Shown piece by piece: positions 2,906-62,145 of a DNA stretch of 64,000 nucleotides. The translations under genes were made by a program, and so were the position numbers. The notes beneath the pieces were generated by a model that made no database searches, was not told where the DNA came from, and saw only the letters and a list, made by a program, of their open reading frames with translations. Within the stretch, counting starts at the first letter, position 1, and every line of letters starts with the position of its first letter. This stretch comes from an uncultured Gammaproteobacteria bacterium (GTDB taxonomy: Bacteria; Patescibacteriota; Patescibacteriia; UBA1558; GWA2-36-10): assembly GCA_964633905.1 (NCBI GenBank), contig CAZWIT010000002.1:63209-127208 (forward strand), read 5' to 3'.

Positions 2906-5252
<2,347 letters not shown>

Positions 5253-31177: not shown

Positions 31178-34100
31178 ATGAAAAAAATATCCATCCTAGT
31201 AATTTTTTGGCTGCTATTGGGACTGATGTTTGCTCTGCCAGCTTGGGCGCAGGGTGCTTTTGGTACTAATACTTTGACTAATCTGGCTGTTTATAGTACG
31301 CGTAGCATTACTGATACTATAGTTGGTATAGTCAATATTATTTTAGGCTTTTTGGGTGTGATTGCAGTTTTACTTTTTTTGTATTCTGGTTGGCTGTGGC
31401 TATCTTCTAGAGGGGATGCACAAAAGATTCAAAAATCTAAGTTGATTATGGCTAGTACCGTAATTGGCTTATTAATTATTTTTGCTTCTTATGCTATTAC
31501 CAATTTTATTATTGCTAGAATAGCCGAAGAAACCGGCACTATTGAAACTACTCCGCCAGGCTATGTACCACCTGGACCAGGACCTGTTACTTGTCCTTTG
31601 CCCGCCAATGATGGTGATATAGATGTATGTCAAGTTTATCCCGGTGCGGCTGCTCCAGGTAATTATTTTACGATTACAGGTTGGAACTTTGGTAATTATG
31701 TAGCGGGCAATAGCCGAGCAGTATTACGTGATAATTTGGGTAATGAAACAGCTTTAGATTTAGTTAGTTGCGATGGCAATCCAATTTGGAATTTAATTTA
31801 TACTACGCCAGATGGAGATAATAGTTTTTATGAAATTAGAGCAATAGTGCCAGATATTACGGCCGCTGTTTATGATGTTAGAGTTTATCGAAATGCCACT
31901 GTCTTTGATCAAGAGACCAATAATTCATTTACAGTTTCTCCGCCTGGAGCAGTTGGTTTGAATATTGCTTGTTTGCGTCCAAGCTTTGGTGCAGCTCGTC
32001 CAACGCCTGAGAGTGTGATAGCTGAGGGTATTAATTTTGGTACTAGTGCAGGTACAATTAGTATGAAAGGCTGGGTCGGGAGTAGCGAGGCCGATATTAC
32101 TGTTCCTAGTGGCACTTGGGATGATACTTTGATTACTTTTCAAATTCCAGATAATGCTTTAGCGAGTGATGTTAAAATTACTCATAATGCAGATATCAAT
32201 AATTGGGATACTCGTTATTTCATGGTTACTTGCGGTGGTGATGATGGTAATTGTTCTTCTGGTTGCTGTAGTAATTATAATGAATGCCGTCCTAATACAA
32301 ATGAGTTTTGTCCAGCTGGCGCTAATTTCAGTAGTGCGCCACGCATAGATGCTATTAGTCCTAATAATGGTGCAGCTGGAAATTTAGTAACTATTTTAGG
32401 GCAAAACTTTGGTACTGTTGCCGGTACGGTTTGGTTTAATGGTGCTAGCGGTCCGATTCAAGGAGTTGTACCATCAATTCTCTACCCAGGTATTTGTCCA
32501 GCCGGTAATTATTGGTATGATAATTATATAATTATTGGTGTGCCAGTAGGCACTATAGACGGCTCGGTCTATATTATGACTGGAGCAGCTATACCTGAGC
32601 AGAGTAATAATGCATCTTTTGATGAAAATGGAATTTCGCGCCCAGGTTTGTGTCAATTAAATCCTATTGGTGGTAGCTTCCAAAATGAAACTAGAGTTAA
32701 TACAACTGGTATTAATTTTGCCAGCACTGATAAAATTTTATTTTCAGTTGATCCAGATATTACTGGTAATGATTATATTTATACTTCTCCGAATGAAGCC
32801 TCGGCTGTAGTACCAAATTTACAAAACGGTCAAGTTGGTGTTCAAATAAAAAATAACGCTGACCAATATAGTAATCCTTTGCCTTTTCAGGTAAGTGATA
32901 GTTTTTTTGGTCAACCACGCATTGTTACCACTTCTCCTAATGGTATTAAGAGCGGTGTTTATATTACTATTTTTGGTACAAATTTTGGAAATTTAGCTGG
33001 CCAAGTGTTATTTAATGATGTAAATAATGCCACTAATCCAGATCTAGTTGGCATTGTTCCGAGTAATCCAATGTGCCAAAATGCTTATTGGCAGAACAAT
33101 CAAATAGTAGTAGAAACTCCTAATTTGCCAGATATTAGCAATGGCAGTCCTTATGAAATAGTTGTTAAGCGAGCTGATGCAGTAGTAAGCGAAGCTTATG
33201 ATATTAATTATAATACTAGTTTAGAAGACGGAGTCTTTTTGTGTGCCGTAGTACCAGATAATGGCCCTAATAATTTTTCGCCAGTTGATTTTTATGGTTC
33301 GGGCTTTAGTGATAATAGTGTTAGAATTCAATTTAATGGAGCAGCTAATACTGTTAATCCGACAGGCTTTAATGATACTCAAGCTTGGGATACGACAGTG
33401 CCTGGTGATGCCTTGAGTGGTCAAGTAATTTTGCAATCGCAAGCTGATAATGGTACTTGGCTTAATAGTAATGCTTTAAATTTTAATATTGCTGGCTGTT
33501 CTCAAAATTCCGATTGTCAGGGTTCAGAGCAATGTTGTCCTGGTAATTTTGGTAACTATTGTTCTCTAAGTTGTGATCAAATTTTAAGCTGTACTTATAC
33601 CTCTACTTTGCATACCCAAAATATACCTTTTAGTATTAATTATAATTATAATTGTGATACTGATTGGCAGTCACCAACTCCTTGGCCAGATGGATTGTTA
33701 AGTTATTCCTCACAAGATAATTATGTAGACTCTAATATTTCTTTTACCTTTACTCGTAATATTGTTGATGCTGATTTAGAGCCAGCTGCTCATAAAATTA
33801 GGTTGTATGAATGTGATAACAGGAATACTAGTTGTGATGTAGAAATAAATATTGCTACCAATATTATTGGTCAAAATAGTAATCAAGAAGGCGTGCTTAT
33901 TAATCCGCTTAATAATTTAGCAGAAAATACTTGGTATAAGGTGGTTTTAGTAGGTGACTTTAGAGCTGAAGGTGGCAATGAATACTGGAATACTAGTTAT
34001 GATCCTGATTTACAAGTTGTTGGTGGTTGGAATTTTAGAACTAAATCAACTGACTTGGCTTGTGAAATTAGTAGTATTCAAGTAACACCGCAGTCAGCAG

Positions 34101-37100
34101 CTGCTAATTTCTATTTAGGTAATTCTCGAGATTTTTATTCAGCACCAACTGCGAATAATTGTAATTTATGCGGTGGTAATTATAATTGGACTTGGCAATT
34201 GACTAATCCACCTAATCCAGATGCCGCTAATGTGACCGATCCATCAAATATTGGCACTAATATTGGTCATACTCGTTTGACCTCTGATTTACCAATAAAT
34301 TATGCAACTGAATTTTTATCTCCTAATTATGTAAATTTGCAATGTAATGTTAATCAGGCAATTGCGCCTAGTTTTTCACAGCCAGTAGTTTTGGCTCCAA
34401 TCTTATTGGTAGAAAATTATGGCCCACTTTGTTCAGCTTCTTGTGACAATGGCACAGTTTGGATAGATTTTAATACACAAATTGCTGCGACCTATTTAAA
34501 TAATACTTATTTTTCAATTCAAGATTGTAATAATGACGCTAGTTGTGCTAGCCCATTGGCTACAAATTTAGTAAATAATATAGCCTTACCACAAGATAGT
34601 AATTTTAGAATAACTTTGCCTCACGCTGCTTTTACTCATAATCATTATTATCGTGTTCAAGCTTTGGATACAATTAGAAATATTCACGGTTATCAATTAG
34701 ATGATACTAAGACTTGGGTTTTTGGTGTAGGCGATGCATCTTGTGAAGTGGCTAGCGTTAATTTAAATCCTAGCAATGCTACTGTGGCAATTAGTAATCA
34801 AATTGCCTATGGTGCTCAGGCTTATTCTGATCCTAATGCTTGTTATATCCATGGTCAGCCAATTGATTGTTTGGCTGCTAATAATTGTACTTGGTTATGG
34901 GCTTCTTCTAATAATACTATTGCTACTATTGAAAATAATAATAGTAGTGTGAGTAATGCTACTGGTGTGGCTGTGGGCACTACTAATATTTCAGCCAATG
35001 CTCGCCAGGCCGGCGTTGATCATATTGATAGTGGTATTTTGACAGTAGTGGAATCAATTACAACTCCAGTTGATCCGCACTTACCACCACGGGTAGAAAA
35101 TATTAGGCCACTTGATGGTGAGACTAACATTTGTCCTAATGCCGCTATTACTATGGATTTTACTGAGTTAATGGATCCAGCTAGTGTGATGGCTCATGTA
35201 AAATTGTATGCTCAGCCTGATAATTATGATGTTAATGGTGACGGTGTTGCTGATTTACAAGACGTTGCTTTAATTTCAGGGAATATTAATTTATGGGATT
35301 TGGTAGATGTTAATTATGGCGTTACGCATTTTGACAGTAATAGTGATAATATTCCAGATAAGACAACGGTAATTTTATATCCTACAAGTTTATTACGTAT
35401 TGTTAATAAAATTAATCATGTAGTGGTACAAGGCAATGTTACTAGTATTTATAATATTGCCTTAGATAGTGGACAATATAATTTTGAGGGCCAGATTCCT
35501 GATATGCCTGGTAATGATAGCTATTCTTGGCATTTTACAACGGGAGCTGACTTATGTCGTATTAGTTATATACAGACTATCCCAACTAGCGATTGGTTTT
35601 TGTGTGCCGGGGATAATTGTGGCATTACTGACGTTGAACCAGCCACGCCCGGTCATCAACATAGCTATACGGCTATTGCTAGAGATGTGCGTGGCATCGC
35701 TTTAGCAGGCTCTATTAGTTATGATTGGTCATTAAATAATGATGGTATTAATTTATTATTAAATAATGATGGTTCGCCAGCTGCTGGGGCTACACCTAAT
35801 GTTCATTTTAAAGTTGCTAATGAAAATGGACGGGAAACTTTAATTGTTAATGCTCAAGGTAGCGATGTTGGTTCGGCTAGCGCTAATATTGGTATTGATG
35901 TATTTTTATGTGAAGTACCTTGGCCTGGTCCTGGTTTGAATTTATTTCCTTGGCAGGATGATGCTTATAATTTTTCTACTTACTATTGTCCTGATGTTGA
36001 TCAAAATGACGGTATTGCTTCTTTGCCAATTTTAAATAATAATCCGATTGAAAATCCTAATCATCCAGCTAGTGTATTACGCGAGTATATTTTTTCAGTA
36101 CCAGCTCCAGTCAGCATGGATTCAGGTAATAATTTTGGTAGTTTATCTACTAGTAAATATAATCAAACAGATAGTTGGTGGTCGCATTTATTTAAAAAAG
36201 TATCTAAGCCTTGGCAGGCATTAGTAGCCAGAGGTCAGGGTATTGGCACAGACATTATTGCCTTGAGAATCATGTCCAATCTTAATCATTTATCGGTAGA
36301 GGATTGGTATGAATTAAATGCTCCTAACCCAGACATTGGGGGCACTTCTTTGGAGGTTGATGGTTATCCAGCTTTGCAAGTAGGAAATACAGTTTATATT
36401 TCAGCCTTTAATTTAGATGATGCGGGCAATGTTCGTTATACTAATATTTATATTTTAGCTTATAATATTGGCGCTAGACCAACAACAGTAGAGATTTTTA
36501 GTCAGCTACTTGATAATTTTAGATTAAATACTAATGTTGATCAGCAAAATAATATTTGCGTCGGCGGTGTAGATGCAGGCAATGTTTGTAGTAGTGATTT
36601 TGATTGTGCTGACCATAATTGTCAGTCTCAAGGCTTAAAATTACGTCGTGATTTAGTGCGTTTGGGAGACATGTTAAATATTAATAGTAAATTAATTGAG
36701 TATGGTGAAACTCACAAGGCCTGTAGTAATAATAGTTTAACAGCTTGTGTTAATAATTCTCAGTGTCCAAATGGTGGTACTTGTATTAATTATTATCCAC
36801 TGCTTAATGCTGGTACTTTTGTGCGCGGCCAATCTAATAGTTCTTGGCCTTCTTGGCAACAGACTTTGGCTACTGGTTTAAGTGGCTCTTTGCCATTGGA
36901 TCCTATTAATTTATTTAATGCTTGCGGTGATCCAGGTTTTGATCCAAATACTTGTTGGAACGAAGAAGCTTTAGAATTTTCTTGTCCAATTGGCTCTTTG
37001 ATTTATCATTATCAAAGAAGTGAAACTGGCGATGGTTATGATTTGTCGGCTAATTTTGAAAGTATTAGTAATTTTGCTACCTTATTAGATCCTATGGATA

Positions 37101-40100
37101 GTAATATTAATACTGAACTTTTATATTGTAACGCCGCTAGTGCTAACTTAATCAACCCTCGTTGTGGTAATGGTAGAATAGATTGGGTTTGTTCAAATAG
37201 AAATTATAATAATCAAACTGATTGTGAGGCTAATAGCGGAACGTGGTATGAAGAGGAATGTGACGGTGGTTATCAAGATAATCAATGTAATCCAATTTTA
37301 AGTGCTACTTATGGAGTACATACCTGGTGGAACGAACAAAGAACAGGTTGTTATCCAGCTGGTAGTATTGTAGGAGGTAATTCCGTAGAATGTACTTGGT
37401 ATGAGCCTGATGTAGCAACCATGTTTGCTCTATGCGGAGGCTATTGTGGTAATAATGCTTTAGAAAGTAATTATGAAGATTGTGAAAATATAAATGGCAA
37501 TACTAATTTTGGCGGAGTGAATTATAGTTGTGCCAATGGCATAGCGCCTACTTGTAGTCCAACTAGCTGTCAAGCTGTTTGTGGTCCTATGCAAACTCCA
37601 GCTGCAGCTTGCGGTGATGGCATTTGGACTGAATTAGTAGAAGAATGCGATGCTAGTGCTCCTAATAATGCAAATGGTTTATCGGAGTTAGATTGTACAG
37701 AAAATGGTAATGTTAGTTGTAATAACAATTGTGAAGCAGTATGTGATACGGGCGTAGCTTATGACGGTCAGTGTGGCGACGGTAATCTTAATAGTGATAT
37801 CAATCCAGTAAGTGGCGATCCTTATGAAGAATGTGATTATGGTGCTTATGCGGTGCCAAGTCCAGCTCAATCATCGCTTACTAACCCTTATACTTGTTTA
37901 CAAAATTGTACTTTTGGTTCAGATTATTGTAATGATACAATTAAACAAGGTGGTTTTGACGAGATTTGTGATACCACTTTAGCTATTAGTCCGACACCAC
38001 CAAATTCTTCTCGTTATAGTCAATATCAGTGCCGTACAGTAAATGACGCAGCTGATCCTTTGTGGACAAAATGTACACCTACAGCCGGCGGTTATTGTGG
38101 TGATGGCACTATTCAAAATGGACAAAATGGAACTTTCGCAGCTGGTGAAATTTGTGATTCTGCTTATCATCCAACTCCAGCAGAAAGCGGCCCAGAAAAT
38201 ACTTACTCTTGTAGTTATACTTGTATGACTAGGACCGGCGGTTATTGTGGCGACACTATTATACAGGATGGTAATAATGGCACTACTGATTATGGTGAAA
38301 CTTGTGATTATGCTGCTTATGCTCCGCCACTACCAGTAGATGCTGATGATATTAATCATCAATATGTTTGTAGTGATGTTTGTTTAGCTGATAGTGGTGG
38401 CTGGTGTGGTGATTCTATTTTGCAGCCTCAATTTGGCGAAGATTGTGATTATGGTAACCCATCAACTCACACTATTCCAGATCCTTGGAATAGTAATTCC
38501 AGTAATCCCTACACTTGTCCTAGTTGTTCCGTTGGTTCATATTGTGGTGATGGTGTTATTGATGTTGCCTATGGCGAGCAATGTGACGCTGGCATGACAC
38601 CACCAGCACGTAAAGTTGAATTAGCGTTTGTTTATGATATGTCGCGTAGCATGCAAACTGCAGCCGCAGCCTTGTGTGGAGTTTTGGATACTTTCTTAGA
38701 TAATTTTGATCCATCAACTACTTTTAGAGTCAGTATTTTCGTTTTAGGTGATGATGCACCAGGTTCTACTGGTAGTCCGCGCACTTTGACACCTGGTACA
38801 AGCGATGATTTAAGAGCACTGACAGATAATGGCACTTGTAGCACAGATGCTCCAGATACAGTTAGTTGTGAGCATAGAAATGTTTATAATAGCTTAGTGC
38901 GTGGTTGCACTGCGCTTTGGGATAGACATGTAGCAGAAATTGCCACTTATAGTGATAGTACTAATCTTAATAAATTTAGATTTTTAAGTTTTTATGATAA
39001 CAATGCTAGTGATCCAGCCTATAATCACATAACTGGCGGCGTAACAAATTTTACCAGTGCTGATGATCATACTAGCTTAAATGGTTGCAATGATGCAGAA
39101 CCGGGTGGTAGATTAGAGAATTGGGGTTATGCTACTGAAAAAATTATTAACAATTATCAGTGGTTAAGTGGTTATCAACGCATAGTTATACCAGTAAGTG
39201 ATGAGTATGCTTGGTGTGGTGGTGATGTAGCTATACCAACAGCAGCAGCTAATGAGAACAATTGCAATACACCAAATACTTGTTCAGGTACTCCGGCTAC
39301 TGGACAACTTGCTAGTGATGATATTATTTCTAGAATTATAAGTTCGGCTACTAATCCGGCTACAAAAGCTTTTGTTAGCCCAGTAATTTTGGCAGGTGCC
39401 GATAATCAAGCTATAGCTTTGCAAGCAGCCAATGCCACAGGTGGTTATATGAGTACGGCTGCTGATGCTAGTTCTTGGAATACGAATATTAATAATATGG
39501 TTGGTGGCGTTTTCTGTGATAGTCATCCAGCTGATGGTGTTATGGATTGTATGTTGCCTGGTGGAGCTCCACCGGCAGCAGGCTTACCAACTTTGTCATT
39601 GCCATATTATTACATATCAAGTGATAGTAATAGTAGCAATAGGAGCGTAACTATAACTCTTGGTGGTACAGCCACTTGGTGGGATGCAGTTTCAAATGAT
39701 CCAACTTGGATTACCAATGTTAGTAAATCTGGCAACACTCTTTCTTTTAGCATAGCGGCTAATACTGGTTCTGTGACCAGAACTGGCTCAATTAAACTTA
39801 CGGCCGGAGCAGCAACTGGGTCACCAATAACAGTCAATCTTAGCATTGATCAATTAGCGCCAGTGCCAGTGCCAACTTTGTCATTACCATATTATACTTT
39901 AGATAGGGACAGCTCGGCAGTCACTATTAGTGTGCCAGTGACTATTGGCGGTTCAGCTACTTGGTGGCAAGCAATTTCTAATAATACGGCTTGGATTAGT
40001 GGTATAAGTCAAGTAGGTAATACACTTTCTTTTAATATAGCTGCCAATACCGGACCGGATAGGACTGGTACAATTTCAGTTAGAGCTGGCGCGCCCACTG

Positions 40101-41848
40101 GTGTGCCAATAGCAGTGACACTGACTATTAATCAAGCAGCGCCAGTAGTACCTCCTGATACAATGCCGCCAACTCCAATTGGAAATACTTTAGTAGCTAC
40201 TCCAGCCGATGGTCAAATTCGTTTAGATTGGGCAGTAGCCACTGATGATAGAGGCGCAGTTATTTATGAGGTAGAAAGATTAGGGCCTACTACTGGAAAT
40301 TATCTAGCTTATTCTAATACCTTTAATCAAAGCGGTTTAAGTAATGGCGTAAGTTATTCTTATCGAGTCAGAGCACGAGATTTAGCTGGTAATATAACGG
40401 CTTGGACAAATACAGCTTCAGCTACTCCTGTTCCAGCCGCTATTCCGCCAATTGCTCCAGCTAATTTAGAAGCTTTTGCACAAGCAGGGGGTATTTATTT
40501 GACTTGGGGCACGGCAACCGTAGGTGATCCAATATCATATTTTAGACTGGAGCGGTCCACTAATTTTAGTTTTTCAACCGTAGATGTGGTTGCTGACATT
40601 AATTTTGCTAGCTTTACTGGTAGCTATACTGATAGTTTTCCTTTAGCTAATCCGACGGTTACTTATTATTATCGAGTAAAGTCAGTAAATAGTGGTAGTG
40701 GTCTAGAGTCTACTTATGTTGGTCCAGTAAATGCTACTATTCCTGATACAACTGCGCCTAGTGTTCCTACAAATTTAACAAGTACTTATTTGAGTGATAC
40801 ACAGTATCGTTTTAGTTGGACAGTTTCAACAGATAATATTGCTATAGATCATTATGAAGTAGAATATCAGGCTGACGCTTTTGTATCTGATGGCACAGGA
40901 ACAAATATTGGTAATCCAACTACCAACTCAATAGATTTTACATTGGATCCTACGGTTGCAACTTATTCTTTTCGAGTACGAGCCTTTGATGCTGGTGGTA
41001 ATCAATCTGCTTGGTCATCAGCGTTAGTAGCTTTTGCTGTTGATGTCTTGCCACCGACTAATCCTACTAATCTTACAGCTTCTGTTTCATTTGGTAATGT
41101 TAATTTAAATTGGACAGCGGTTAGTGATAATATTGGTGTTAGCGGCTATGATTTATTAAGAGCTACTACTAGTGGTGGGCCTTATACTTTAATTGTTTGT
41201 CCCTCGATGTCTTGTAATGTCACTGGATCAACTGCTAGAAGCAACACTTCTGTAGCGCCGGGGACTTATTATTATGTAGTAAAAGCCTTTGATGCTGCTG
41301 GTAATAGATCGGATATTTCTAATCAAATAGCAGTAACAATTTTGCCACCAGCACCACCTAGTGTACCTACTAATTTTACTGGCATGCCAATAGGCAGATT
41401 AGTAAGTTTAAATTGGACAGCTTCTATTGATGATGTATCAGTGACTAATTATGAGGTTCAATATAAACCTAATTTAACTGGGACCTGGACTCTTGTTGGT
41501 AGTCCAACTACTAATGCTCTGAGCTATTCAGTACCAGCTCTAGTTACCCAACCATATTTTCGTGTTAGAGCTAAAGATAATGATAATAATTATTCAAATT
41601 ATTCAACTGAATTGACCGTTACTATTGATGGTACTGGTTGTACTGAAACATTTTGTAATCAATGGGATGCTATTAATAGTGCTAATAGAACTGCATGTGC
41701 AAATCAGTGTGTAAATAATAGCGGTTGTTGTCAAGCTTGCGTAGATCCATATAATTCTTATGTTGGTTGTCGTTTGAATCCTGATGCGGTTACTAATTCC
41801 TGTTCTAGTAGTCAGGTGTCCATGCCATTAGGTGTGCGTTGTGATTAA
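31178..41848 (+). CDS. giant (3556 aa) mosaic cell-surface protein: VirB2/TrbC-like anchor, IPT/TIG-like Ig repeats, CGDG...ECD Cys-rich repeat array, vWA (MIDAS), 2 BACON-like, 5 FN3, Cys-rich C-terminus; putative adhesin
   Basis: Single uninterrupted ORF; domain signatures read directly from translation (see findings). Confidence 0.9.
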   Translation: MKKISILVIFWLLLGLMFALPAWAQGAFGTNTLTNLAVYSTRSITDTIVGIVNIILGFLGVIAVLLFLYSGWLWLSSRGDAQKIQKSKLIMASTVIGLLIIFASYAITNFIIARIAEETGTIETTPPGYVPPGPGPVTCPLPANDGDIDVCQVYPGAAAPGNYFTITGWNFGNYVAGNSRAVLRDNLGNETALDLVSCDGNPIWNLIYTTPDGDNSFYEIRAIVPDITAAVYDVRVYRNATVFDQETNNSFTVSPPGAVGLNIACLRPSFGAARPTPESVIAEGINFGTSAGTISMKGWVGSSEADITVPSGTWDDTLITFQIPDNALASDVKITHNADINNWDTRYFMVTCGGDDGNCSSGCCSNYNECRPNTNEFCPAGANFSSAPRIDAISPNNGAAGNLVTILGQNFGTVAGTVWFNGASGPIQGVVPSILYPGICPAGNYWYDNYIIIGVPVGTIDGSVYIMTGAAIPEQSNNASFDENGISRPGLCQLNPIGGSFQNETRVNTTGINFASTDKILFSVDPDITGNDYIYTSPNEASAVVPNLQNGQVGVQIKNNADQYSNPLPFQVSDSFFGQPRIVTTSPNGIKSGVYITIFGTNFGNLAGQVLFNDVNNATNPDLVGIVPSNPMCQNAYWQNNQIVVETPNLPDISNGSPYEIVVKRADAVVSEAYDINYNTSLEDGVFLCAVVPDNGPNNFSPVDFYGSGFSDNSVRIQFNGAANTVNPTGFNDTQAWDTTVPGDALSGQVILQSQADNGTWLNSNALNFNIAGCSQNSDCQGSEQCCPGNFGNYCSLSCDQILSCTYTSTLHTQNIPFSINYNYNCDTDWQSPTPWPDGLLSYSSQDNYVDSNISFTFTRNIVDADLEPAAHKIRLYECDNRNTSCDVEINIATNIIGQNSNQEGVLINPLNNLAENTWYKVVLVGDFRAEGGNEYWNTSYDPDLQVVGGWNFRTKSTDLACEISSIQVTPQSAAANFYLGNSRDFYSAPTANNCNLCGGNYNWTWQLTNPPNPDAANVTDPSNIGTNIGHTRLTSDLPINYATEFLSPNYVNLQCNVNQAIAPSFSQPVVLAPILLVENYGPLCSASCDNGTVWIDFNTQIAATYLNNTYFSIQDCNNDASCASPLATNLVNNIALPQDSNFRITLPHAAFTHNHYYRVQALDTIRNIHGYQLDDTKTWVFGVGDASCEVASVNLNPSNATVAISNQIAYGAQAYSDPNACYIHGQPIDCLAANNCTWLWASSNNTIATIENNNSSVSNATGVAVGTTNISANARQAGVDHIDSGILTVVESITTPVDPHLPPRVENIRPLDGETNICPNAAITMDFTELMDPASVMAHVKLYAQPDNYDVNGDGVADLQDVALISGNINLWDLVDVNYGVTHFDSNSDNIPDKTTVILYPTSLLRIVNKINHVVVQGNVTSIYNIALDSGQYNFEGQIPDMPGNDSYSWHFTTGADLCRISYIQTIPTSDWFLCAGDNCGITDVEPATPGHQHSYTAIARDVRGIALAGSISYDWSLNNDGINLLLNNDGSPAAGATPNVHFKVANENGRETLIVNAQGSDVGSASANIGIDVFLCEVPWPGPGLNLFPWQDDAYNFSTYYCPDVDQNDGIASLPILNNNPIENPNHPASVLREYIFSVPAPVSMDSGNNFGSLSTSKYNQTDSWWSHLFKKVSKPWQALVARGQGIGTDIIALRIMSNLNHLSVEDWYELNAPNPDIGGTSLEVDGYPALQVGNTVYISAFNLDDAGNVRYTNIYILAYNIGARPTTVEIFSQLLDNFRLNTNVDQQNNICVGGVDAGNVCSSDFDCADHNCQSQGLKLRRDLVRLGDMLNINSKLIEYGETHKACSNNSLTACVNNSQCPNGGTCINYYPLLNAGTFVRGQSNSSWPSWQQTLATGLSGSLPLDPINLFNACGDPGFDPNTCWNEEALEFSCPIGSLIYHYQRSETGDGYDLSANFESISNFATLLDPMDSNINTELLYCNAASANLINPRCGNGRIDWVCSNRNYNNQTDCEANSGTWYEEECDGGYQDNQCNPILSATYGVHTWWNEQRTGCYPAGSIVGGNSVECTWYEPDVATMFALCGGYCGNNALESNYEDCENINGNTNFGGVNYSCANGIAPTCSPTSCQAVCGPMQTPAAACGDGIWTELVEECDASAPNNANGLSELDCTENGNVSCNNNCEAVCDTGVAYDGQCGDGNLNSDINPVSGDPYEECDYGAYAVPSPAQSSLTNPYTCLQNCTFGSDYCNDTIKQGGFDEICDTTLAISPTPPNSSRYSQYQCRTVNDAADPLWTKCTPTAGGYCGDGTIQNGQNGTFAAGEICDSAYHPTPAESGPENTYSCSYTCMTRTGGYCGDTIIQDGNNGTTDYGETCDYAAYAPPLPVDADDINHQYVCSDVCLADSGGWCGDSILQPQFGEDCDYGNPSTHTIPDPWNSNSSNPYTCPSCSVGSYCGDGVIDVAYGEQCDAGMTPPARKVELAFVYDMSRSMQTAAAALCGVLDTFLDNFDPSTTFRVSIFVLGDDAPGSTGSPRTLTPGTSDDLRALTDNGTCSTDAPDTVSCEHRNVYNSLVRGCTALWDRHVAEIATYSDSTNLNKFRFLSFYDNNASDPAYNHITGGVTNFTSADDHTSLNGCNDAEPGGRLENWGYATEKIINNYQWLSGYQRIVIPVSDEYAWCGGDVAIPTAAANENNCNTPNTCSGTPATGQLASDDIISRIISSATNPATKAFVSPVILAGADNQAIALQAANATGGYMSTAADASSWNTNINNMVGGVFCDSHPADGVMDCMLPGGAPPAAGLPTLSLPYYYISSDSNSSNRSVTITLGGTATWWDAVSNDPTWITNVSKSGNTLSFSIAANTGSVTRTGSIKLTAGAATGSPITVNLSIDQLAPVPVPTLSLPYYTLDRDSSAVTISVPVTIGGSATWWQAISNNTAWISGISQVGNTLSFNIAANTGPDRTGTISVRAGAPTGVPIAVTLTINQAAPVVPPDTMPPTPIGNTLVATPADGQIRLDWAVATDDRGAVIYEVERLGPTTGNYLAYSNTFNQSGLSNGVSYSYRVRARDLAGNITAWTNTASATPVPAAIPPIAPANLEAFAQAGGIYLTWGTATVGDPISYFRLERSTNFSFSTVDVVADINFASFTGSYTDSFPLANPTVTYYYRVKSVNSGSGLESTYVGPVNATIPDTTAPSVPTNLTSTYLSDTQYRFSWTVSTDNIAIDHYEVEYQADAFVSDGTGTNIGNPTTNSIDFTLDPTVATYSFRVRAFDAGGNQSAWSSALVAFAVDVLPPTNPTNLTASVSFGNVNLNWTAVSDNIGVSGYDLLRATTSGGPYTLIVCPSMSCNVTGSTARSNTSVAPGTYYYVVKAFDAAGNRSDISNQIAVTILPPAPPSVPTNFTGMPIGRLVSLNWTASIDDVSVTNYEVQYKPNLTGTWTLVGSPTTNALSYSVPALVTQPYFRVRAKDNDNNYSNYSTELTVTIDGTGCTETFCNQWDAINSANRTACANQCVNNSGCCQACVDPYNSYVGCRLNPDAVTNSCSSSQVSMPLGVRCD
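37430..38610 (+). repeat. array of at least 10 cysteine-rich repeats (CGDG/CGNG ... G-E-x-CD), Myxococcus-type cysteine-rich repeat-like, inside the giant ORF
   Basis: Repeated YCGDGTIQ...GEICD, YCGDTIIQ...GETCDY, WCGDSILQ...GEDCDYG, YCGDGVID...GEQCDAG and similar. Confidence 0.65.
38615..39250 (+). other. von Willebrand factor A domain with MIDAS motif D-M-S-R-S-M inside the giant ORF
   Basis: VELAFVYDMSRSMQTAAAAL ... FRVSIFVLGDD. Confidence 0.6.
39583..40155 (+). repeat. two tandem ~95-aa BACON-like repeats (coding), sharing a near-identical 24-nt start
   Basis: LPTLSLPYYYISSDS...ATWWDAVSND..NTLSFSIAANTG..RTGSIKL...ITVNLSIDQ and PTLSLPYYTLDRDS...ATWWQAISNN..NTLSFNIAANTG..RTGTISV...IAVTLTINQ. 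Confidence 0.6.
40150..41630 (+). repeat. five tandem fibronectin type III domains (coding)
   Basis: Recurrent P..PTNLT...L.W..S.D..GV..Y.V.R...G.....YYYRV.A.D.AGN.S motifs. Confidence 0.7.
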
Positions 41849-43740: not shown

Positions 43741-44154
43741 ATGGCCAATTTATTAATTGTAAATAGCCGTCATTGGCACATTGATTTTAGCTGGTTAGCA
43801 AAATTGGAAGTTATTTTAAAAAAACAATTTAAGATAAAACAAGAAATTTCCATTAGCTTACTTACTCCAGCCGAAATAAAAAAGTTAAATAAAGTTTATC
43901 GACACAAAAATAAAGTAACAGATGTTTTATCATTCACTTTAGCGGATAAATTATTATTAGGTGAAGTTTTAATCTGTGTTGAGCAAGCTAAAAAGCAGGC
44001 TAAAATTAAAGGGCATAATTTAAAAAGAGAATTACAAATTTTGACAATTCATGGAATTTTACATCTTTTAGGTTATGATCACGAACGGAGCGAGGCAGAA
44101 TGGAAAAAACAAAATAAGATGGAAACGGAGATATTAAAGAAAATGATTATATGA
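43741..44154 (+). CDS. ybeY: rRNA maturation endoribonuclease YbeY
   Basis: HGILHLLGYDH zinc-binding motif; TGA stop inside the ATGA overlap with the next gene. Confidence 0.9.
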   Translation: MANLLIVNSRHWHIDFSWLAKLEVILKKQFKIKQEISISLLTPAEIKKLNKVYRHKNKVTDVLSFTLADKLLLGEVLICVEQAKKQAKIKGHNLKRELQILTIHGILHLLGYDHERSEAEWKKQNKMETEILKKMII

Positions 44155-47898: not shown

Positions 47899-49101
47899 AT
47901 GAAAAAATCTTTTGATACTTTGCTAATTATTATTGTTAGCACGATTTTTGGCGGTTTATTTGGCTCTTATTTAGTAATTAACCAAATGGGTAATTTAGCT
48001 TGGTTACAGAATGGTAAGTCTCCGCAAAACATTATAAAAAAAGAAGTGGTGCAAGGCACAGAGCAGTCAGCTGTAATTGATGTAGCAAAACAAGTGTCGC
48101 CCTCAGTTGTTTCCGTGGTTATCAAAAAAGATGTGAGCCGTAATTATCAGACTGATCCTTTTTCGGATTTTTTTAATAATTGGCCTTTTTATCAAGCCCC
48201 ATCAGAAATTCCTAAAAATAATGAGCCTGATTATCAAAAAGTTGGTGGTGGTAGTGGCTTTATAATTTCAGGCGATGGCTTGATTTTGACTAATAAACAT
48301 GTGGTGGCTGATACGCAGGCCCAGTATGTAGTTGTTTTGAATGACGGTAAAGAATATGAGGCTAAAGTGGTAGGCACAGATATTTTTAATGATATTGGTG
48401 TTTTAAAAATTGATGCTAAAGATTTGCCAGTAGTTAATTTAGGTGATTCGGATAAATTGGTTAATGGACAGACAGTCATAGCCATTGGTAATGCTTTAGC
48501 TGAGTTTAGTAATACAGTTACAGTAGGAGTGGTTTCTGGTATTGGTAGAAATATTGTAGCTGGTAATGGTAGTGGTAGTTCTGAAAAACTAGAAGATGTT
48601 ATTCAAACCGATGCTGCTATTAATCCTGGTAATTCTGGCGGACCATTGCTGAATATTTTTGGGGAAGTAATCGGTATTAATACGGCGGTTTCTAGTCAAG
48701 GGCAATTGATTGGCTTTGCTATTCCGATTAATTCAGCTAAACAGGTTATTGATAGCGTTAAAATTAACGGTGAAATTGTCAGGCCTTATCTAGGTGTGCG
48801 TTATCAAATGATAAATGATAGTATTAAACAAGCAAAAAAATTAACTTTAGATAATGGTGCTTTGCTGGTATCTGGTAACAAGGCGGGTGAGGCAGCAATA
48901 GTTTCTAATTCGCCAGCCGATAAGGCGGGATTAAAAGAAAATGATATTATTACAGAAGTTAATGGTAAGGCTTTAACATCAGATTATGATTTAGCTAAAG
49001 CTATTTCGAATTTTAAACCAGGGGATGTTGTAAATATAAAAGTTTGGTCAAATAATCAAACTAAAGAGCTAAAAGTAACTCTAGAAAAATTTAAGAATTA
49101 G
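47899..49101 (+). CDS. htrA: HtrA/DegP-family serine protease with one PDZ domain
   Basis: Catalytic triad context TNKHVV ... GNSGGPL; C-terminal PDZ. Confidence 0.9.
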   Translation: MKKSFDTLLIIIVSTIFGGLFGSYLVINQMGNLAWLQNGKSPQNIIKKEVVQGTEQSAVIDVAKQVSPSVVSVVIKKDVSRNYQTDPFSDFFNNWPFYQAPSEIPKNNEPDYQKVGGGSGFIISGDGLILTNKHVVADTQAQYVVVLNDGKEYEAKVVGTDIFNDIGVLKIDAKDLPVVNLGDSDKLVNGQTVIAIGNALAEFSNTVTVGVVSGIGRNIVAGNGSGSSEKLEDVIQTDAAINPGNSGGPLLNIFGEVIGINTAVSSQGQLIGFAIPINSAKQVIDSVKINGEIVRPYLGVRYQMINDSIKQAKKLTLDNGALLVSGNKAGEAAIVSNSPADKAGLKENDIITEVNGKALTSDYDLAKAISNFKPGDVVNIKVWSNNQTKELKVTLEKFKN

Positions 49102-49112
49102 ACAGTAAAAAA

Positions 49113-50195
49113 GTGGAAGAATTAATCAGTCAAATTAAAGAGTTGTGCCGTCAAGTTGATAAGGTTTTAGGATCGGCTGATTTTGATAAAAAAATAAAAC
49201 AACAGGCTTTATACCAAAAGCAAATGCTGGCTAGTGATTTTTGGTCGCAAGCCCAAGCACAGGACATTAGTCGTCAGGCGGGTGGCTTAGAACAATTTAT
49301 TAATAACTGGCAAAACTTAAAAAAATCGCTTGATGAATTATTGCACTTTGCTCAAGATGAACAGGCTAGTTCAATGCAGGCTGAAATTATTGAAAATTAT
49401 CAAGCCTTATTAAAAAAATATAATCACTTAAGCACCAGTTTATTTTTATCAGGTGCACATGATCAGGAGCCGGCTATTATTACAATCATGGCTGGGGCTG
49501 GTGGTGTTGATGCTCAGGATTGGGCAGAAATGTTGGAACGCATGTATTTACGTTTTGCTGAGCAAAATGGTTATGCAATTAAATATTTAAATCGCTCAGT
49601 TGGCAATGAAGCCGGTTTAAAAAGTACTACTTTTAAAGTTAGTGGTGATTATTCTTTTGGGTATTTAAAAAATGAAGCTGGGGTGCACCGCTTAGTAAGA
49701 CTTTCTGACTATGATGCTGATCACGCACGCCACACTTCTTTTGCCATGGTAGAAGTTTTGCCGGAGATCCCTTTAAACAAGGTGCATTTAAACGAAGCAG
49801 ATTTAAAAATTGAGACTTATCGCGCTTCTGGTCACGGGGGTCAATCAGTTAATACCACTGATTCAGCTGTGCGTATTACCCACTTACCAACAGGTCTGAT
49901 TGCTACTTGTCAGAATGAACGTTCGCAATTACAAAATAAAAATCAAGCTCTAAGCTATTTAGCCAGTAAACTGCAACAGTGGCAGGAACTAAAAAGAGAA
50001 GAAGATCGTAAGGCCTTAAAAGGTGAGTATACTGAAGCTGCCTGGGGCAATCAAATTCGTTCATATGTTTTGCATCCTTATAAATTAGTCAAAGATCATC
50101 GAACAGATTTAGAGTCAACTGACCCTAATCGAGTCTTAGCGGGAGACTTATGGCCTTTTATTGAAGCTAAATTAAAAAAACTAGCTAGTAAGTAA
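49113..50195 (+). CDS. prfB: peptide chain release factor 2 (no frameshift site; non-canonical SDY in place of SPF tripeptide)
   Basis: RF2-type alignment (MAGAGGVDAQDWAEMLERMY, GGQ motif SGHGGQSVNTTDSAVRITH); loop reads GVHRLVRLSDYDADHARHTSF. Confidence 0.88.
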   Translation: MEELISQIKELCRQVDKVLGSADFDKKIKQQALYQKQMLASDFWSQAQAQDISRQAGGLEQFINNWQNLKKSLDELLHFAQDEQASSMQAEIIENYQALLKKYNHLSTSLFLSGAHDQEPAIITIMAGAGGVDAQDWAEMLERMYLRFAEQNGYAIKYLNRSVGNEAGLKSTTFKVSGDYSFGYLKNEAGVHRLVRLSDYDADHARHTSFAMVEVLPEIPLNKVHLNEADLKIETYRASGHGGQSVNTTDSAVRITHLPTGLIATCQNERSQLQNKNQALSYLASKLQQWQELKREEDRKALKGEYTEAAWGNQIRSYVLHPYKLVKDHRTDLESTDPNRVLAGDLWPFIEAKLKKLASK

Positions 50196-57223: not shown

Positions 57224-57240
57224 CTATAATTGTTTTTATA

Positions 57241-57269
57241 TTGACAATATTGTTTATTTATAGTATTGT
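57241..57269 (+). promoter_or_regulatory. sigma70-like promoter TTGACA-17-TATTGT
   Basis: Read directly, ~60 nt upstream of the small GC-rich gene. Confidence 0.45.
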
Positions 57270-57327
57270 TCAAATCCGTTCTTTTTTCCCCTGTCAATAT
57301 AAACATTGTCTCAAGGAGGAGGGTTAG

Positions 57328-57525
57328 ATGAAGGCTTTGCTAAAAAGGGCCGGCATTTTGCTGGCTGCGAAGCGCGAAGAAATCGGGCGTAAGCGTCGTA
57401 TCAGAGAATTGCGGCAAGAGAGTGAACTTATTTTCCAGGAAGCTATGGGTAGAGTTATCTGCCAAAAGCCTAATGGCGGTACGCTTGCCAAAGAAGCGGC
57501 TGACGACGAAGTCTATTCTGTCTAG
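57328..57525 (+). CDS. small basic protein (65 aa) in a GC-rich (~48%) island, strong SD AAGGAGGAG
   Basis: ORF with canonical RBS spacing, own promoter and own terminator; composition atypical for this genome. Confidence 0.55.
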   Translation: MKALLKRAGILLAAKREEIGRKRRIRELRQESELIFQEAMGRVICQKPNGGTLAKEAADDEVYSV

Positions 57526-57532
57526 CTAATAT

Positions 57533-57571
57533 TACCCAATCCTGCTACTAGCAGGTGAGGGTATTTTTTTA
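57533..57571 (+). terminator. Rho-independent terminator (TACCC aat CCTGC tacta GCAGG tga GGGTA + T7)
   Basis: Hairpin plus TTTTTTT. Confidence 0.75.
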
Positions 57572-57587
57572 TTGCCTAATTTAGGCC

Positions 57588-57616
57588 TTGACAAGTTTTA
57601 ATATTTTTGTTAGAGT
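57588..57616 (+). promoter_or_regulatory. sigma70-like promoter TTGACA-17-TAGAGT driving the GC-rich RNA element
   Basis: Read directly. Confidence 0.45.
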
Positions 57617-57639
57617 GCTTTTTGTCTATATTTTCGTAC

Positions 57640-57905
57640 CTCCAATATTAATGGAAAAACGGAGACAAGCGCCCTGTCATGTTGGTTATGAAAACGTATT
57701 GGCCACCGCGGGGCCTGCGTTTTTGGTCGGTGTGCATCACCTGGCCTAACCCAATTGGGTAGTTCTCCGTTTAGAGGAGATTGAGATAGCGCGCCTGCAA
57801 AACAGGTGAGCCTCGCGTCCGATGGGAACTACGCCCACGATAGTCGCGAGCCGCAGTCTCGCTCCTCGAGGGGTTCGTGCTCGTCCGCGGACCCCTTTTT
57901 TATTT
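57640..57905 (+). ncRNA. GC-rich (~58%) highly structured RNA element (~270 nt) ending in an intrinsic terminator, upstream of rpsL; class unknown (ncRNA or attenuating leader)
   Basis: Multiple helices (CGGAGA...TCTCCG long-range; GCGAG ccgcagt CTCGC; ACCCAATTGGGT; terminator GGGGTTCG...CGCGGACCCC + T6). Confidence 0.45.
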
Positions 57906-58009
57906 GTTTGGGCTTGACTTAGCTTTTTTTTTGTGCTATTTTATTGAAGCATTTTATAGCCCCTCGGGGCGATAATTATTTTTATAAAAACAATTTATTT
58001 TGAATTTTA

Positions 58010-61096: not shown

Positions 61097-61107
61097 ATTA
61101 AATTATT

Positions 61108-61146
61108 CAGCCCAAGTGTCTTTTAAGCGTTTGGGCTGTTTTTTAT
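61108..61146 (+). terminator. Rho-independent terminator (CAGCCCAA ... TTGGGCTG + T-run) after fusA
   Basis: Hairpin plus TTTTTTATT. Confidence 0.75.
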
Positions 61147-61199
61147 TATAACAATTTTGGGTTAACAAAAAACCCCATTTATGTAATAGAGTTTTTTGT

Positions 61200-61760
61200 T
61201 CATCTGAAGCCACTAGATCTTAATAGCTAGAGAGCTATAACCTAGTGGACTCGGATAAAGGGGAGAAACTGTTGGCTGGCGGCGGGTCGCGTTGAACGCG
61301 ACCCGCCGCACTGATGCGTTATTCGGATGCTTCTCCCTTTGACTATTTTTACCTGTAGTCAGCAGGATTCCGTTGCCCCGGAATGACGGGAGTTGTTTGT
61401 GAGGATTACCGGATATTATGCGGCCTCCGGAGAGTCGCGGGAACTACCCGACTACTGGGCCTATGGTTCGAACAGTCCAAACATCACGATCCTTTCTGCT
61501 GCACCCTCTTGCAGCAAATGGGTCCTGAAGTACAGGAGTGGTTGCGACCTTATATGGTTTCCGGGTATTATCGGCCCCCGGTGGATCTGGTCGCACGCAG
61601 TTCTTGGGCGGGCGCTGCGCGGTCGTATTTAACCGCGAGCAAAATTGTGCCGATGACTGCGTTTTTTAGACCACTGGCCTAGAGCAACAGTCGAATCACT
61701 ACAATCTCCCTTCTTTTCGGTTTAGCGGAGCGCATGAGCGCTCCCGTTTTGTTTTTTTAC
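61200..61760 (+). ncRNA. GC-rich (~57%) noncoding island inserted between fusA and tuf; candidate large structured ncRNA of unknown class, ending in intrinsic terminator (GGAGCGC atga GCGCTCC + T-run)
   Basis: 13-bp GC stem GCGGCGGGTCGCG ttgaa CGCGACCCGCCGC; GGGGAGAAAC...GCTTCTCCC helix; CCACTAG...CTAGTGG helix; no convincing ORF. Confidence 0.4.
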
Positions 61761-62094
61761 CAAACTGTATCACAGGTTTTGTGGATGACAGTCTGGCAAC
61801 TGCGGGTGTTTAGCCATCTTAGAGCATTCAACCCGCCTTTAAAGGCTAGTGTTTTACAAACACTGTAATGGAGGTAAGGATATAAGCTGATGCTTATATC
61901 AGGTGGTAAACTCGAAATTATCAAGCCGTAAAGCCTGATAAAATCAGGGTTGTAGGACCTGTTCTTAGTCCTCCAATACAGTATTTGTAAAAAAGCCTTT
62001 ATTTATTGGTTTTTTAAGAGCAATAGAGCATTATATCATATAATTAATATTTTGTCAATAGTATTGTAGCCATAAATAAATTTAAAATATTAAT

Positions 62095-62123
62095 TTGACA
62101 AAGAGCTATTTTTCCACTAATAT
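62095..62123 (+). promoter_or_regulatory. sigma70-like promoter TTGACA-17-TAATAT
   Basis: Read directly upstream of 62146 ORF. Confidence 0.4.
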
Positions 62124-62145
62124 ATGAACACTTTACCATAAAATT

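Follow-up and report, generated by a model that had tools for sequence, protein, structure and literature searches.

The tripeptide Ser-Pro-Phe (SPF) is the textbook 'peptide anticodon' of bacterial release factor 2 (RF2). In RF1, the motif is P-x-T and its middle residue is freely variable. Many prfB genes contain a programmed +1 frameshift; this feature is frequent but not defining, and it is missing in a sizeable minority of bacteria. Genetic codes in which UGA has been reassigned are recognized by in-frame TGA codons in conserved genes, by a tRNA with anticodon UCA and by the loss of RF2.

Serine is regarded as the discriminating residue of the RF2 tripeptide. The form SPY, reported from about a third of bacteria, is held to be non-disruptive or neutral (Duarte et al., PMC3472500). 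Reading of the second base of the stop codon is credited to Ser205 and reading of the third base to T215, in E. coli numbering (PMC5776981). Arg213 and further residues outside the tripeptide add to stop-codon recognition (PMC8131318). The known mutations that change the specificity of E. coli RF2 are S205P, F207T and E167K, and P206 is not among the positions concerned. S205P leads to the loss or attenuation of UGA reading, and each of the single mutations F207T and E167K makes the factor omnipotent, so that it reads all three stop codons (PMC11903333). Our literature searches found no papers on P206 variants of RF2, and the literature that could be searched makes no mention of an S-[E/D]-[Y/F] form of this factor.

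Here we describe an RF2 that carries an acidic residue in place of the proline. It is encoded in the 64,000-nucleotide stretch of DNA analysed here, called the window below. We treat S-[E/D]-[Y/F] as new at the sequence level: a variant of an established factor, for which a functional consequence would still have to be demonstrated.

Identity of the prfB product

The prfB gene occupies positions 49113-50195 of the forward strand and encodes 360 residues, from a GTG start to a TAA stop. Profile scores, Pfam domains and alignment to structure chains indicate that its product is a normal, full-length RF2 of a small-genome Patescibacteria bacterium. The score against the NCBIfam prfB model (TIGR00020) is 421 bits for a cutoff of 370. 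Both the PCRF (PF03462) and RF-1 (PF00472) domains of Pfam are found, domain 1 being included. Among solved structures, the protein matches RF2 chains best, aligning over residues 3-356 with E values of 2e-90 to 1e-78. The GGQ motif responsible for peptidyl-tRNA hydrolysis is found at residues 242-244 (49836-49844, forward strand). A preliminary description of this DNA had recognized an RF2-type protein, and the TIGR00020 score, the two domains and the GGQ motif bear this out. It had also stated that the gene is encoded without the programmed +1 frameshift. This is correct: a single ORF spans residues 3-356 of the RF2 chains, so that no frameshift is required. The prfB ORF is also uninterrupted in all relatives of the clade described below.

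Two other identities were rejected. RF1 models score the product at 231-237 bits, under their cutoffs of 400-423, and there is no P-x-T tripeptide. The RF-H model (prfH, TIGR03072) gives 110 bits for a cutoff of 166.65, and the protein has 360 residues with domain 1.

The tripeptide and the recognition loop

The codon-recognition loop, GVHRLVR-L-SDY-DADHA-RHTSF, is encoded at 49680-49742 of the forward strand, as seen from alignment with sister RF2s. Because the region from GVHRLVR to RHTSF aligns without any gap to RF2 structures, Ser198-Asp199-Tyr200 falls on S-P-F (E. coli residues 205-207). The corresponding codons, TCT GAC TAT, are located at 49704-49712 (forward strand) and were also compared with those of relatives. 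Hence the serine is kept, the proline is replaced by aspartate and the phenylalanine by tyrosine, as the preliminary description had read from the sequence. Its proviso that the motif might have been misaligned was dealt with by running the alignment: the loop aligns free of gaps and contains no SPF at another place, which rules out a misalignment.

The tip of helix alpha5, the element that recognizes the U at the first position of stop codons, is G-G-V-D (49500-49511, forward strand, placed from the homologue alignment) and corresponds to G-G-T-E in E. coli. Its aspartate is found in 99 of the 101 relatives that retain the proline (hereafter Pro-type), and in 118 of the 120 sequences of the homologue alignment. 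The other codon-contacting residues (alpha5 tip G-G-x-[E/D], R213, H214 and T215) are present as in the Pro-type sisters. More generally, Ser205, R213, H214, T215, S216, F217, the alpha5 tip and GGQ are the same in the RF2s that have lost the proline (Pro-less) and in the Pro-type ones. Apart from the aspartate, each residue of the recognition loop of the window RF2 occurs at the same position in proline-containing sister RF2s.

A Pro-less clade in Patescibacteria

The 120 closest homologues of the window RF2 are RF2s of Patescibacteria/Parcubacteria metagenome-assembled genomes (MAGs). Their tripeptides are SPY (59), SPF (42), SEF (11), SEY (6), SAF (1) and SLF (1). In a neighbour-joining tree, every SE[Y/F] sequence, the SAF sequence and the window SDY fall in one clade, nested among Pro-type sequences. 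This Pro-less clade comprises 19 RF2 clusters with pairwise identities of 59-100%. Position 206 is Glu in 17 of them (P0001-P0007, P0009, P0010, P0014-P0017, P0021, P0027, P0034 and P0053), Ala in one (P0022) and Asp in one. Only four alignment columns are diagnostic of the clade (E. coli numbering): 161 (W to Y), 206 (P to E/D/A), 242 (D to E) and 354 (M to W). Within the loop, position 206 alone separates the Pro-less clade from Pro-type RF2s.

Two of the other diagnostic changes can be located in the window gene. The W to Y change corresponds to residue 154 (49572-49574) and the M to W change to residue 347 (50151-50153). Each is fixed in exactly the clade that lacks Pro206. Besides SAF (P0022), the non-proline tripeptides of Patescibacteria RF2s also include SLF (P0055).

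Among the relatives, the Glu codon at position 206 switches between GAA and GAG, and the neighbouring codons also vary synonymously. This pattern indicates that the acidic residue is under purifying selection. The Asp form is found within the clade in the window genome alone, and the other three members of the 90% identity cluster that contains the window RF2 are all SEY. SDY is therefore a recent, conservative Glu to Asp change. Among the relatives, GCA_964533435.1 and the 405,237-bp contig Ga0265297_10000059 encode SEY, and GCA_041662385.1 encodes SEF. The preliminary description had asked whether SDY recurs in the lineage: an acidic residue does, clade-wide and as Glu, and the Asp is restricted to one genome. 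The idea raised there that SDY variants could be common and functionally neutral is half right. Such variants are rare overall, but the acidic form is stable in the clade and coexists with TGA stops.

The gene order ybeY-dgkA-ftsA-ftsZ-nrdR-x-htrA-prfB-x-comEC-MBL...rpsL-rpsG-fusA is kept in the Pro-less loci. Most of this order is also kept in Pro-type relatives, with htrA missing in two. This conserved neighbourhood makes the stop codons of orthologous genes comparable. In the window, the htrA-like serine protease gene lies upstream of prfB (47899-49101, forward strand) and its stop is 11 nt before the prfB start. A GTDB scan with the window RF2 gave, among the matches listed, relatives that all have at most 60% identity; these were used as Pro-type controls only.

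Several other features of this neighbourhood were observed. A giant ORF of 3556 aa (31178-41848, forward strand) is located upstream of ybeY across the clade, and two TSP3-repeat genes follow it. Its orthologues in related loci have Big_5, TIG, fn3 and T4SS-pilin-like Pfam matches. Long ORFs are absent from 57224-58009 (ca 0.8 kb, upstream of rpsL) and from 61097-62145 (ca 1 kb, between fusA and tuf). In one related locus (L095), a 23S-rRNA-IVP-like gene is found between rpsG and fusA.

Loss of the proline in other RF2s

A broader view was obtained from 150 diverse representatives, namely the 50% identity clusters closest to the query. The middle position of the tripeptide is Pro in 145 of them; two are without Pro, one is an RF1 and two are unscorable. 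Tallied by whole tripeptide, the set contains SPF (139), SPY (6), SPT (1), SKY (1), SEY (1), one RF1 and one unscorable sequence. Since 145 of 150 representatives have the proline, its replacement need not be cost-free. The preliminary description had called both substitutions unusual. This is right for Pro to Asp, in view of these figures, but not for Phe to Tyr, as 59 of the 120 closest homologues carry SPY.

At the DNA level, a metagenome-wide search with the pattern G-V-H-R-L-V-R-x-S-[D/E]-[F/Y]-D retrieved 7 contigs. Three belong to the present clade, one encodes an SDF form and three are eukaryote-like. The SDF RF2 (L092, P0393) comes from a Yanofskybacteria-like family in which an SSY protein (P0394) is closest to it; Pro is retained in the remaining 117 scorable relatives. 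As judged from these alignments, loss of the proline in RF2 is rare, yet it has taken place independently several times. At least four separate losses can be counted: the SE clade, SLF, SDF/SSY and SSF.

The eukaryote-like contigs (L087, 6911-6946; L089, 6496-7590, reverse strand; L093, 3922-3957) encode RF2-like proteins with SEY and RRQTCF, together with kelch/BTB and AAA-ATPase genes. Their SEY RF2 is probably a nuclear-encoded organellar factor that has lost the proline independently. Being eukaryote-like, the three contigs are uninformative on bacterial TGA use. Two of the 150 representatives, P0253 (SEY) and P0163 (SKY), resemble these eukaryote-like RF2s. In a Saccharibacteria MAG contig (CAZGWE010000007.1), the RF2 encoded at 3950-4978 of locus L059 has the tripeptide SSF. 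Of the 15 long ORFs of this locus, 5 end with TGA, Fic-domain and hsdM-like genes among them. A natural RF2-like protein, P0225, has the tripeptide SPT (RISPTDAKKRRQTTF). SPT corresponds to the F207T change of E. coli RF2, reported to read all three stop codons (PMC11903333).

Stop-codon usage

The window contains 50 ORFs with a length of 100 aa or more. Of these, 35 end with TAA, 14 with TAG and one with TGA. The preliminary description had already noted the dominance of TAA and TAG and the single TGA at the ybeY/dgkA junction, and these counts agree with it. The TGA (44152-44154, forward strand) ends ybeY (43741-44154, forward strand, 137 aa) and overlaps the dgkA start in an ATGA at 44151-44154. 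Because ybeY orthologues, of 133-143 aa, end with TAA or TAG, this TGA is a gain of the window lineage itself.

When the 21 genes of two flanking contigs (L105 and L106) are included, TGA ends one of 71 genes of the window organism. It ends none of 12 genes in the closest relative (L083), 6 of 86 genes (7%) in the other Pro-less genomes and 8 of 83 genes (10%) in the Pro-type sister loci. Two shadow ORFs not called in the gene tables were removed from these counts. With Fisher's test, the window lineage (1/83) differs from the Pro-type sisters (8/83) with p = 0.034. The other Pro-less genomes do not stand apart from the same sisters (p = 0.59), and all Pro-less genomes taken together, window lineage included (7/169), give p = 0.09. 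Four Pro-type loci have no TGA stop at all: L009 (0/16), L045 (0/14), L053 (0/18) and L103 (0/20). The scarcity of TGA is real in the window organism; it is neither general to Pro-less genomes nor confined to them. In the 71 genes of the window organism, TAG is used as a stop 20 times (28%) for the single TGA, with about equal frequencies of the two trinucleotides in the DNA (TAG 2362, TGA 2153). TAG ends 13 of 83 genes in the Pro-type sisters.

TGA stops are found across the Pro-less clade. Besides ybeY in the window, TGA ends ftsZ in L099 and nrdR in L081 (both SEY). It also ends an MBL-fold gene in the SEF loci L095 and L097, a HAD hydrolase in the second of these, L097, and one more gene in L094. 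Five of the TGA-ended genes have orthologues in the table, and their proteins are as long as those of the orthologues ended by TAA or TAG. From these normal lengths and the lineage-specific positions of the codons, the TGA stops were gained after the proline had been lost, and TGA behaves as a stop in the genomes of the clade.

A UGA-reassigned code (tables 4 and 25) was considered and rejected. In the window, no real gene contains an in-frame TGA, and the only ORF pair that would be fused by reading through TGA is antisense to ftsZ. Searches of the 64 kb detected no tRNA gene, suppressor tRNAs included, and no Rfam family. In addition, an RF2 gene is present. The suggestion of the preliminary description that the tripeptide reflects altered stop-codon specificity or lineage-specific decoding was not borne out. 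Ser205 and the codon-contacting residues are unchanged, genes of the clade end at TGA with normal length, the window shows no in-frame TGA or suppressor tRNA, and very low TGA use is also found in Pro-type Patescibacteria loci. A changed reading of stop codons, or a new genetic code, is not supported by these data.

The question of RF1

No RF1 paralogue was found in the window, in its flanks or in any of 106 loci. Only about 80 kb of the genome are covered by the window and its flanks, and the absence of prfA from this portion means little. Started from the best RF1-like representative, a protein search retrieved RF1s of the Lachnospiraceae type only, with no tie to the window genome. Nearly all bacteria with UAG stops are known to possess RF1. 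In three genomes of the clade (L099, L094 and L097), prfB itself ends in TAG. Its termination would need a UAG-reading factor, presumably RF1.

Possible explanations for the variant

We consider it likely that the window gene encodes a working release factor for UAA and UGA whose loop carries a rare but tolerated variant. It would be the organism's ordinary RF2, terminating at UAA and UGA. The substitution is lineage-specific and hits the middle, non-discriminating position of SPF. Pro was replaced by Glu a single time, in the common ancestor of a Patescibacteria subclade that has long retained the acidic residue, and only in the window genome did Glu give way to Asp, through a single base change (GAR to GAC). 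Tyr at the third position is simply the common SPY form. Such an RF2 should still read UGA, any effect on efficiency being quantitative at most, and a separate RF1 would handle the abundant TAG stops.

The use of TGA could however be read differently. The acidic residue at position 206 might lower the efficiency of RF2 on UGA, or a low use of TGA might have relaxed selection on the loop, TGA stops being purged in either case. The purge would be most complete in the window lineage and possibly an early step toward an unassigned UGA. The stepwise fall of TGA from the sisters (8/83) through the other Pro-less genomes (6/86) to the window lineage (1/83, p = 0.034 against the sisters) goes in this direction, as does the 20-fold excess of TAG over TGA as a stop for similar trinucleotide frequencies. 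In E. coli, the neighbouring mutation S205P attenuates UGA reading (PMC11903333), but Ser205 is intact here. Moreover, the whole clade goes back to one evolutionary event, which leaves the correlation with n = 1. Pro-less genomes outside the window lineage use TGA like their sisters, Pro-type loci without any TGA exist, the SSF locus L059 has 5 TGA among 15 stops, and the one TGA of the window is a recent gain. We therefore view a weakened reading of UGA as unlikely. We would give somewhat less credit still to the stronger proposal that loss of Pro206 weakens UGA recognition and makes the subclade, and the window lineage above all, a natural intermediate toward an unassigned or reassignable UGA.

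A changed or broadened specificity, in which the variant RF2 also reads UAG or replaces a lost RF1, would account for the high use of TAG (28% of stops, including the end of prfB in three clade genomes). It would also fit with the absence of an RF1 gene from the window and fetched flanks and with the omnipotence conferred on E. coli RF2 by single mutations near the motif, F207T and E167K (PMC11903333). Yet residue 207 is still aromatic, the loop differs from that of Pro-type RF2s at position 206 only, and the Pro-type sisters use TAG too (13/83). The lack of prfA in the ca 80 kb covered says little, and RF1 is known to be nearly universal in UAG-using bacteria. This explanation is very improbable. 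Hardly any weight at all, finally, goes to the notion that sequencing or assembly introduced the Asp codon in error or that the gene is decaying. SDY occurs in one genome only, the remaining members of the clade having Glu or Ala. However, the ORF is intact, 94% identical to its nearest relative, and all catalytic and decoding motifs are conserved. An identical protein, on a contig of 195,089 bp, is on record from NCBI and from Logan, a weak argument as the independence of the two records is not established. An exact look-up of the window RF2 on contigs gave no match, although the protein collection contains the sequence. Were the true residue Glu, the loss of the proline would still stand.

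Comparison with known release factors

If the likely reading of a tolerated variant is right, the continued use of TGA stops in a clade whose members are down to about 59% identity would indicate that the middle residue of SPF is dispensable in nature. This would fit the view from structures in which the reading is done by Ser205 together with residues beyond the tripeptide. The natural variants P206E, P206D, P206A and P206S are on hand for dissecting or engineering RF2 specificity. Should UGA reading be weakened after all, the variant would parallel in nature the UGA-attenuated RF2 that was engineered to build a one-stop-codon E. coli. The import of these observations is modest. They offer natural variation useful to researchers and engineers of termination, not evidence of altered decoding.

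The window RF2 shares with bacterial RF2s of the E. coli, T. thermophilus and B. subtilis type the four-domain architecture, with ca 45% identity to the best solved chains, as well as GGQ, Ser205, R-H-T-S-F, the alpha5 tip and a recognition loop of equal length. In contrast with them, it has Asp for Pro206, Tyr for Phe207 and no +1 frameshift site. Its alpha5 tip has Asp instead of Glu, a feature common to nearly all its Patescibacteria relatives. RF2s of the SPY type also have Tyr at the third position of the tripeptide but keep the proline. With the S-E-[Y/F] RF2s, the window protein shares membership of a monophyletic clade, the gene neighbourhood, the acidic residue at 206 and the three further clade substitutions; it differs from them by Asp instead of Glu.

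The engineered E. coli variants S205P, F207T and E167K are likewise altered within this tripeptide or beside it. Those changes affect the first or third, discriminating residues or a charge patch and measurably alter codon reading (PMC11903333), whereas the window RF2 is changed at position 206. Finally, RF-H (prfH) has a putative tripeptide S-x-Y with a variable middle residue (PMC1586002), which resembles SDY. RF-H however is a protein of ca 200 aa without domain 1, whereas the window RF2 has this domain and the gene tables show no RtcB-like neighbour.
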